This document shows positions 33,001 through 36,000 of a DNA stretch of 64,000 nt, piece by piece. Made by a program: the position numbers. Position 1 is the stretch's first letter, and each line of letters opens with the position of its first letter. Location of the stretch: NCBI RefSeq assembly GCF_016026235.1, contig NZ_CP065613.1; one strand, written 5' to 3'. Source of the DNA: Escherichia coli (GTDB taxonomy: Bacteria; Pseudomonadota; Gammaproteobacteria; Enterobacterales; Enterobacteriaceae).

Positions 33001-36000
33001 CCCTCTTTCAGTTTATGTGTCAGCTTTTCCGCAAGATCTGACGGCGGCGCCGCCCTGACAACATCATAGTGTTTAAATGCCATGGTTCTTTCCACCATCT
33101 AAAAAATAATTCTTTAAAATACCTGACATGTAATACAGAAAAAGCACAAAACCATACATTAAATAAAAACCTGATTATCAAGCAGATATGCATGGATAAA
33201 CTACAAGACGAGATATAAACCACCCTGCATTTAAATAAACAATAAACAACATCAGAAAAATAATTCTGCTCTATGGTTTACATTCAAAAATATCATTTAT
33301 ACTTTTCAGAACATCACCAGCAAGACATAAACAAGGAAACTAAATGAAGTGGATTGTGATTGATACAGTTATCCAGCCATCATGCGGAATATCTTTTTCA
33401 GTCATATGGAGTAAAATAAAATTAATAATCTGGTATCAATCGGATGCTTTCTTACCTCCTGAAAGTATATTTACACTGACTCACACAGGCATCATGCTCA
33501 ATAACAAAGTGCTACCTGTAACCATTTACAACGTAGTACCATTCAATAAAACATTCTGGAATTTAATCAAAAACAGCCAGGAATGCCCTACAAATACAGA
33601 TAACGTATTGAATGAATGCTTTAATAACCGTTGCACTCTGCAAATATGTCCTTATGGACTAAAACAACAAAGTCCATAAGGAGTTTACTCACATCTGACA
33701 AAATCAATATAAACAGCCCCTCCGGAGAGGGGCTGGAGAGTGGCGCTATGTGCCATTGCATGGTGCCGGGTGCCTCCCGGTGAATTCAGTACCAGCACCT
33801 GAATCCGCGATTATCCCATATACCTACTCGCTGATTGCCCCTCCGCACAGGGGGATTCACCATGCCAGTTTCTTTTAACAAACTCCCCGCAAACCAGACA
33901 ACAGTCAACCGCCTGAATTGTGAAGTATTTAAAAATTTCTCCCGCTAACTGATACCCGGCTAACAGTCTGGCGTTTTCTTTTTCAGCAACGGGAAAGCAA
34001 CAACCCTGTTATCGTGTCGTCTGCTCTTCCTGATAAGCTAATGGCGGTTTGTGATGGTGGCCCTTGCTGGATTTGAACCAGCGACCTGGCGATTATGAGT
34101 CGCTCGCTCTCACCACTGAGCTAAAGGGCCGGGAGCAGAATAATAACGGTCCGTAATTAATTCCGCAATAAAAAACCCGCTCGGCGGCGGGTTGTAGAAA
34201 CTCTTCTAACGTCAGGCATAAAACGCCCATAGTTATGACGAATTTACCACAGATTCCGGAAAAATCAACCTTGTTACCTAGTTACCTTTTTTAACTGCCG
34301 CTCAGCCCATGCTTCTTCAATATCAAACCGGGTCACCAGCGCATCATAGAATTTCTTAACTGTTTTTTCCCATGACGCGCGTGTTATCTGGTTTGTCACC
34401 TCGCATATAGCATTAAATGCCTCCGTTGATGGTAGTCTTTCATAGCCACGACCACCACAACGCTGGCAGTCTCTGATAACAGGCATACCACGTTTTACCG
34501 ACTCTTCACGATGAATGGCGACACCACGCCCACGGCAATCCTTACAGGCGGTGGAAACCTCACCCTTTCCGCCACACTCCGGACAGGCAACTTTTACCAC
34601 CTCCCTGACTTTTTTCCATTCTTCCCAGTAAGACGGATACACACCTTTCGTACACTTTGCCCATACCGGCGGCTTACCATCCGGATACTGGACCTTGTTT
34701 GTAAAAACTACGCTTTCAATAAATTTTTCCCCATAGCAACAAGGGCACTGCTTTTTACTCGCTGCGCTGCGGGCATAATCCTCAAAAGCGTACGAAGCCA
34801 TAATGCGCATCACTACCGGTTTTATTTCTGCCGGAAGTTTTCTCAACGCCGCCACACGATCGCACCGACTGAGTGCATAATCAGCCAGTAATTCTGTTGC
34901 CCGCGCCCTGTCATTCATACTGATGCCCATTTTCCCCAGGAACGCAGAAAACCCCATCTCAGCCCGATTCTGTGTCATGCCCTGCGCGGCCATCACATCA
35001 GTGATACTCAGCGCATCTTTTGACGTTGAGGCCGATGCATCGGTCAGGCAAGGGGATTTTGGGGAGTAGTATTTCGGTAAATCTTCCAGTTTCATTTTTT
35101 GACCTGCTCTTCATGCATTATGGGGTAAATCTTCACCCCCAGACGTCCTCCAGATACTGGCTGACCACGAACGATATTGATTTCATCAAACTGCTCATCG
35201 TCCATTAACACTCCCGCATGTGTCAGTGCATCCAGTGGTGCTTTCAGGATATTGTCCAGGTCACGACGGCGCTTATCCGGTGGCTCTGCAATAATCTTTA
35301 TCGCCAGTCTTCCGGACAGGCTTAATTTCAGTCGCTGCTGACGGACAATAAGCGCCACATCCCGGCGATAACGCTCACCGGCTTTTGATACAAAATATGT
35401 GTTGTCACGACGTCGCCAGTAAGTATTCACCGTCGGCGGATAAGGTAAAATAAACTCATGGCGCATCAGCGCAGCACCTCCTGCACCAGTTTTTCAAACT
35501 TTCCGACTCTGGTTTCCAGCTCTGCCACACAGTCCACCAGCTCATCTACTGCTTTCTGTGCGCGATGCTTCGCCTGCATCAGTTCCCGAAGCGCGGGTAC
35601 CATATCTTTACGGATAGCATCTTTTGTTATGCCCGTTTTTTCGAGTTGTTCAGCATGACGCAGCATTTCCTGCGCGTGTTTACGCAATTGTTCAGGGGTA
35701 AAAGTCATTGTCTGGTTGTTCAAAAGAAACGCTCCATCTTACTGCTGTCAGTTCGTTTATTACTGTATCTGCGCGGATTGCCGGGCTTCATGGGAGTGGA
35801 AAGCACCCGTGCACTTTCCTGGTCCACAGGCAGAAAATGTCCGTTATAAAAACGCCGGTAAATCGTTCCCAGAGAACCGTTACGTTGTTTCGTGATATTG
35901 ATTTCTGCGATGCCCCTGGCCTGCGTATCCGGGTTGTACACTTCATCCCTGTAAAGCATCAGAATGATGTCTGCATCCGCCTCTATTTCTCCGGAATTTT

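Follow-up and report, generated by a model that had tools for sequence, protein, structure and literature searches.

Within a 64,000-nucleotide (nt) stretch of the Escherichia coli contig NZ_CP065613.1 (assembly GCF_016026235.1), hereafter the window, a pronounced AT-rich island lies between the antitermination and tRNA genes of a lambdoid prophage and its lysis genes. The G+C content of positions 33099-33735 is 33.1%, compared with a mean of 50.6% (standard deviation 4.9%) for 614-bp intervals of the window; at 31.6%, the interval 33099-33712 is the lowest of all (0.02% of intervals are equally low), and on a 300-bp scale the G+C content drops from approximately 50% to 29-35% across 33000-33700. 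The island includes an AT-rich upstream, regulatory region (33099-33343, plus strand, 27.8% G+C) and an intact plus-strand open reading frame (ORF) of 111 amino acids (33344-33679, 34.5% G+C), which begins with ATG and has a Shine-Dalgarno sequence, AAGGAA (33333-33338), 5 nt ahead of it. An earlier, sequence-only reading of this DNA had described the island, the ORF with its own Shine-Dalgarno sequence and its orientation against late transcription, all of which hold, the antiterminator, tRNA, holin and lysozyme genes being encoded on the minus strand. That reading recognised no protein family in the product, a statement that is refuted by nucleotide identity to a known gene and by placement in the IraM family on three separate grounds (NCBIfam, PDB and fold): we assign a probability of about 0.93 to the ORF being iraL, encoding an anti-adaptor of RssB, so that the observation was correct but concerns a gene already characterised.

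All 336 nt of the coding sequence are identical to iraL (c1429, formerly ycgW) of the uropathogenic strain E. coli CFT073, which raises the level and the stability of sigma-S (RpoS) in logarithmic growth and whose product interacts and co-purifies with RssB, with binding confined to its N-terminal domain when assayed by two-hybrid (Hryckowian et al. 2014, PMC4045071). The published cut-offs for an iraL allele are at least 95% nucleotide identity over the whole coding sequence and at least 96% in the promoter region (PMC4045071); the values found here are 100% over 336 nt and 97% upstream (237 of 244 nt, seven differences). The same protein accession, WP_000871291.1, is held by the potB prophage of CFT073 in the same cassette. 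The product scores 162 bits against NCBIfam model NF007393 (IraM; cut-off 121), with residues 1-110 aligned to model positions 1-113 of 114, and residues 1-78 match chain A of PDB entry 8twd, IraM bound to RssB, with E = 9e-32. RefSeq names homologues of the ORF 'anti-adapter protein IraM', and a precomputed protein-database table lists for them PF11183, which we take to be the PmrD family and which the present assignment does not use. Among 5426 complete E. coli genomes, megablast with the 751-bp locus (33050-33800) finds 1430 that hold it at a coverage of at least 80%, so that the locus is conserved; degeneration from a known gene was considered and dismissed, the ORF being intact and identical to a functional iraL allele.

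AlphaFold2, run on 16 family sequences, predicts strands within residues 2-66 and a helix at residues 69-77; predicted local distance difference test (pLDDT) values are 76-93 for residues 1-80 and under 50 for the tail beginning at residue 81. Foldseek returns 8twd_A as the best match (template modelling (TM) score 0.90, root-mean-square deviation 1.3 A, 78 columns), followed by PmrD structures; IraL is thus predicted to possess over residues 1-78 the PmrD-like antiparallel beta-barrel with C-terminal helix that has been described for IraM, PmrD resemblance included (PMC10844676). The likeness to PmrD is one of fold (4hn7, TM score 0.73, E = 8e-4): identity is 14%, PmrD binds phospho-PmrA rather than RssB, and IraL is not a member of the PmrD functional family. 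When RssB contacts are taken from the 8twd crystal structure, IraL retains all five residues of cluster I (I4, I6, W22, K26 and I42), which touch the receiver domain, and has three of five identical residues with two conservative changes in cluster II and two of four identical residues in cluster III. The changes from IraM to IraL (T13S, L75I, H63N and I64V) fall at contacts with the C-terminal domain and the linker of RssB, a pattern that appears consistent with the reported binding of the N-terminal domain only.

Beyond the barrel, the tail contains C81, C92, C97 and C102, which are invariant in 16 Escherichia sequences that are 53-98% identical to the query, alongside P82, I101, P103 and G105 (a CP...CPxG motif); the block occupies codons 81-105 (33584-33658), and the cysteine pattern and CPxG are retained in a Salmonella-phage fragment of 35% identity. 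Judged by this alignment, the cysteines that the earlier reading had singled out are a feature of the IraM family. The tail of IraM was removed for crystallography as proteolytically unstable and is described as less conserved and flexible (PMC10844676), a description with which the invariance of the tail cysteines contrasts.

Transcription of iraL is placed by reference to CFT073, in which the product of rapid amplification of cDNA 5' ends (5' RACE) begins ACATCACCAGCAAGGCATAAACAAGGAAACCA (PMC4045071). The window reads ACATCACCAGCAAGACATAAACAAGGAAACTA from position 33311 on the plus strand, with two mismatches in 32 to the CFT073 product, and by this homology 33311 is the transcription start. 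Upstream of it a candidate sigma-70 promoter was read by eye, TTTACA (33277-33282) and TATACT (33298-33303), with both hexamers unchanged in CFT073; its 15-nt spacer explains why a consensus scan that allows only spacers of 16-18 nt missed it. Weak plus-strand promoter calls at 33236-33264 and 33395-33422 were discarded for their mismatch with the published start. Expression in a lysogen is documented for CFT073 by 5' RACE and by RNA-seq, the latter showing iraL mRNA 1.6 log2 units higher at 37 C than at 23 C (PMC4045071, PMC12890032), and iraL mRNA is also increased in a fur mutant (PMC7157518). The AT-rich upstream region may undergo H-NS-type silencing, which would be lifted at 37 C.

In the sense of phage transcription, the cassette consists of Q, the late promoter and terminator pR'/tR', a tRNA gene, a gap of approximately 160 bp, the small RNA (sRNA) gene STnc100, iraL in reverse, a remnant of nanS-p and the holin gene. 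Q (34274-35095, minus strand) is identified by Pfam PF03589 (Antiterm, E = 6e-55); pR'-like hexamers, TTGATT (34268-34263) and TAAATT (34246-34241), were read by eye on the minus strand, and a terminator scan places tR' at 34193-34174 (minus strand). The remnant of nanS-p, a 9-O-acetyl sialic acid esterase gene, spans 32656-33098 (minus strand) and consists of the N-terminal DUF1737 fragment (32895-33098, PF08410), the homologue of which RefSeq marks as a pseudogene lacking the C-terminus, and a 53-amino-acid ORF; approximately 2.3 kb are missing from this region relative to phage Stx2_EH2246, in which nanS-p is intact (1896 bp). A class II (P21-type) holin gene S (32372-32587, minus strand, PF04971; coordinates carried over from E. 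coli 042) is followed by DUF1327, lysozyme and Rz genes, on the minus strand like all surrounding phage genes. CFT073 and 042 share the order Q, tRNA, STnc100, reversed iraL, DUF1737 remnant and holin, the holin of CFT073 likewise being class II. The window also agrees with CFT073 in the mapped start and differs from it in the seven upstream substitutions, in having one tRNA gene rather than three, in the deletion of the DUF3927 gene and in its Shigella-like or enteroinvasive E. coli (EIEC)-like host and chromosomal site. With its own promoter, its deviant G+C content, its position between phage operon blocks and its variable presence in related phages, iraL is a lysogenic-conversion ('moron') gene of a lambdoid prophage; the proposal of horizontally acquired cargo stands, in the form of an independently transcribed prophage gene in the Q-to-lysis region.

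The single tRNA gene (34055-34130, minus strand, anticodon CAT) is called tRNA-Met by ARAGORN and is identical to a gene that RefSeq annotates as tRNA-Ile in CFT073; we take it to be of the lysidine type that reads AUA. Six of the 13 isoleucine codons of iraL are AUA, far more than in neighbouring phage genes, where AUA makes up 0.3-2% of codons; a link between this tRNA gene and the AUA codons of iraL is suggestive only.

Two hairpins near the end of iraL fold as first described, but they do not form part of a bracket of terminators around the ORF: there is no terminator 5' of the ORF, and the second hairpin ends a convergent gene. Hairpin 1 (33649-33660/33671-33682, plus strand) has a perfect 12-bp stem and a 10-nt loop (-17.5 kcal/mol, z = -4.96), and the iraL stop codon (33677-33679) sits within its 3' arm. 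It occurs in the iraL allele only, where it creates a four-residue extension, QQSP; K-12 iraM and the Stx2-phage allele lack it. Its T tract fails the requirement for a canonical terminator (tail GTTTACTC, four T in eight), and it is possibly a weak terminator or a stabiliser of the mRNA 3' end. Hairpin 2 (33714-33722/33727-33735) has a 9-bp G+C stem and a minus-strand T tail, TTTATATTGA, and is scored as a terminator. It coincides with the terminal stem of Rfam model RF02076, which identifies an STnc100-family sRNA gene running from 33894 to 33705 on the minus strand (132.4 bits, gathering threshold 47, model positions 1-206 of 206). Hairpin 2 is the Rho-independent terminator of STnc100 and not part of iraL, and its sequence is identical in Stx2_EH2246. 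The two genes converge, with 25 nt between the iraL stop codon and the 3' end of the sRNA.

STnc100 is a prophage sRNA that binds Hfq (see PMC12370729, PMC12711010, bioRxiv 10.64898/2026.05.13.724894). In Shiga toxin (Stx)-producing E. coli it is reported 75 nt after stx2B (PMC12370729), and it overlaps EcOnc27/sRNA103, an sRNA of O157:H7 that binds Hfq and is encoded downstream of stx2B (PMC12711010); in Stx2_EH2246, a Stx2a phage, STnc100 begins 75 nt past the stx2B stop codon. The RNA of the window is the same, full-length RNA as that of Stx2 phages, except that no stx gene lies ahead of it, and E. coli 042 likewise has STnc100 at the equivalent position. A partial 'hypothetical protein' that RefSeq annotates in CFT073 and 042 (equivalent to 33750-33878, plus strand) lies antisense within STnc100 and is probably a spurious call.

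The sequence-only reading had placed the ORF in the slot where Stx phages carry stx, which is right as to the neighbourhood and wrong as to the slot itself. If the slot is defined as the interval between the phage tRNA genes and the STnc100/EcOnc27 sRNA, its equivalent here (33895-34054) is empty apart from 46 nt (33960-34005) left over from the 3' end of a DUF3927 gene, as found by blastn against E. coli 042, CFT073 and Stx2_EH2246, and iraL lies beyond STnc100. Both Stx2_EH2246 and Stx2_EH1910 have the order tRNA genes, stx2A, stx2B, STnc100, a reversed iraM-like gene, intact nanS-p and holin; since stx2AB and the iraM-like gene coexist in both of these inspected phages, the two cargo genes are not alternatives. 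The iraM-like gene occupies 2971-3294 of the Stx2_EH2246 stretch and 1971-2294 of that from the second record, and the segment 32864-33923 of the window is 71% identical in nucleotides to the Stx2_EH2246 module. The iraM-like gene resembles iraL in its reverse orientation and its location between STnc100 and nanS-p, and differs in having stx2AB just upstream, an intact nanS-p and no 12-bp hairpin.

By tblastn, genes of the IraM family are present in 46 of 50,697 phage records: four non-Stx phages with true iraL (98% identity), 41 Stx2 records and one Salmonella fragment. The 41 Stx2 records, mostly of Stx2c phages (2851 and 1717 among them) and including Stx2a_WGPS, Stx2_EH2246, Stx2_EH1910 and phiSTEC1575-Stx2k, carry a variant that is 72-74% identical to IraL in amino acids; its position between STnc100 and nanS-p refers to the two inspected records, the other 39 holding the gene at a position that was not checked. 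The variant has 107 amino acids, is 66% identical to K-12 IraM and possesses two additional cysteines, C23 and C41. Most records leave the gene unannotated, and a literature search within the library covered found no dedicated or functional study of an IraM-family gene in Stx2 phages. In the prophages of CFT073 (uropathogenic) and 042 (enteroaggregative) and in the two inspected Stx2 phage records, the IraM-family gene and STnc100 form a conserved tail-to-tail pair, the sRNA 3' end lying 7-25 nt from the stop codon. Lysogeny by Stx2c-type phages may rewire RpoS proteolysis, and the convergent pair may cross-regulate by read-through antisense transcription; in conjunction with the idea that the four-cysteine tail may respond to metal or redox state and so determine how stable or how active the anti-adaptor is, this proposal is speculative, and we consider the whole of it rather unlikely.

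The prophage is inserted between the aspS/yebC side and the torZ/cmoB/argS side of the chromosome, in contrast to the potB site of CFT073. In E. coli FDAARGOS_943 (NZ_CP065615.1, 760000-775000) both chromosomal flanks are 99-100% identical to those of the window, and the prophage at the same site has another late cassette (a methyltransferase gene, four tRNA genes and a holin gene) without iraL, which illustrates the exchange of late cassettes between related prophages. Coverage of positions 24000-44000 by complete E. coli genomes reaches at most 64%. Three ORFs of equal length, 272 amino acids, belong to insertion sequences (IS) and lie at 36818-37974, 48223-49041 and 51815-52633, with IS3-family ORFs from 36818; IS600 and IS2 are named in the nearest genome, and one copy adjoins the gene for the phage replicative helicase. 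Near the tail-fibre end, where there is a low-G+C patch (approximately 5670-6650), lies an ipaH-type effector gene (approximately 6108-7859), which together with the IS600 and IS2 copies points to a Shigella/EIEC-like host. Other RNA genes of the window include, in the early/immunity region, a C4 antisense RNA (83 bits) and the Hfq-binding RNA isrK (64 bits), both identified by Rfam at 41008-41195 (minus strand), and, in the chromosomal DNA that borders the prophage on the right, the sRNAs MicL (59811-60118, minus strand, 370 bits), which overlaps a minus-strand ORF (59890-60636), and ES036/CssrF (55832-55874, plus strand).

If the gene functions as in CFT073, transcription of iraL in the lysogen would begin at approximately 33311, driven by a sigma-70 promoter of its own and opposing a silent late operon, and the terminator tR' together with that of STnc100 would keep minus-strand transcription off it; after induction, late transcription modified by Q would run antisense across iraL. 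The N-terminal PmrD-like barrel (residues 1-78) would bind RssB, the adaptor that delivers sigma-S to ClpXP, and RpoS, escaping degradation, would accumulate in exponential growth and raise general stress resistance. RssB binding and RpoS stabilisation by the identical protein are known from CFT073 (PMC4045071), and the same activity is presumed in the present host.

Several features of the locus weigh against identification as a functional iraL. Pfam-A has no match for the ORF, K-12 IraM or a divergent homologue, even at E <= 10, and because these scans are empty the family assignment rests on NCBIfam, PDB and the fold. Three of the seven upstream differences are close to the transcription start (-1, +14 and +30) and could make expression unlike that in CFT073; the gene for the presumed target, rssB, lies outside the 64-kb window; and the prophage is decayed, with IS insertions, a deletion in nanS-p and a reduced set of tRNA genes. 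The last of these points, with a very AT-rich promoter region typical of H-NS-silenced DNA and the substitutions near the start, would fit an inert passenger, intact by chance and silenced or unexpressed here; however, the coding sequence is unchanged relative to CFT073 while the flanks differ by 1-3%, the promoter hexamers and Shine-Dalgarno sequence are intact, and the allele has been kept intact across many lineages, all of which makes a mere passenger very improbable. The lack of a Pfam-A family, combined with 30 C-terminal residues that hold four cysteines and are modelled at pLDDT below 50, would also be expected of a new cysteine-rich cargo protein (a toxin, an immunity protein or other), but we give this practically no credence, as identity to a characterised gene and the NCBIfam, PDB and IraM-fold matches have already refuted it.

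The gene might instead be the functional equivalent of K-12 iraM (b1160), induced through PhoPQ by Mg2+ starvation and encoding a protein that clamps both RssB domains. The two proteins belong to one family, have the same PmrD-like barrel, the same cluster I residues and five cysteine positions in common, share the RefSeq name and are 59.5% identical in amino acids by our comparison (58.9% as published, PMC4045071). K-12 IraM, which is reported to contact both RssB domains (8twd, PMC10844676), nevertheless has 107 amino acids without the QQSP extension, and its gene lies beside e14/icdC rather than in a Q-S cassette. Nucleotide homology is confined to the coding sequence (33342-33663, 70.6% identity), and comparison of the sequence upstream of K-12 iraM with that of iraL reveals no relationship, so the promoters are unrelated; the identical CFT073 protein acts in logarithmic phase and binds the RssB N-terminal domain only (PMC4045071), and the contacts at residues 13, 63, 64 and 75 are changed. 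Equivalence to IraM is therefore very improbable, slightly more so than an inert passenger, and the gene is better regarded as iraL in its own right. The Salmonella member of the family is the anti-adaptor RssC, which resembles IraL and IraM and occurs only in Salmonella (PMC4045071); it is much more divergent, and the comparison made with it covers the 35%-identical Salmonella-phage fragment.

The locus is thus a new encounter with a known gene and a known sRNA terminator, of value chiefly for annotation: iraL, named 'IraM' in RefSeq, should be annotated as a prophage moron beside the stx slot, and the adjacent hairpin as belonging to STnc100. Carriage of iraL predicts raised RpoS in growing Shigella/EIEC-like cells and bears on their resistance to acid and oxidative stress. 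The phage sRNA StxS reportedly activates RpoS; if the IraM-like variant of Stx2 phages is active, the stability of RpoS in Stx2c lysogens would be under phage control, in addition to the effect of StxS.

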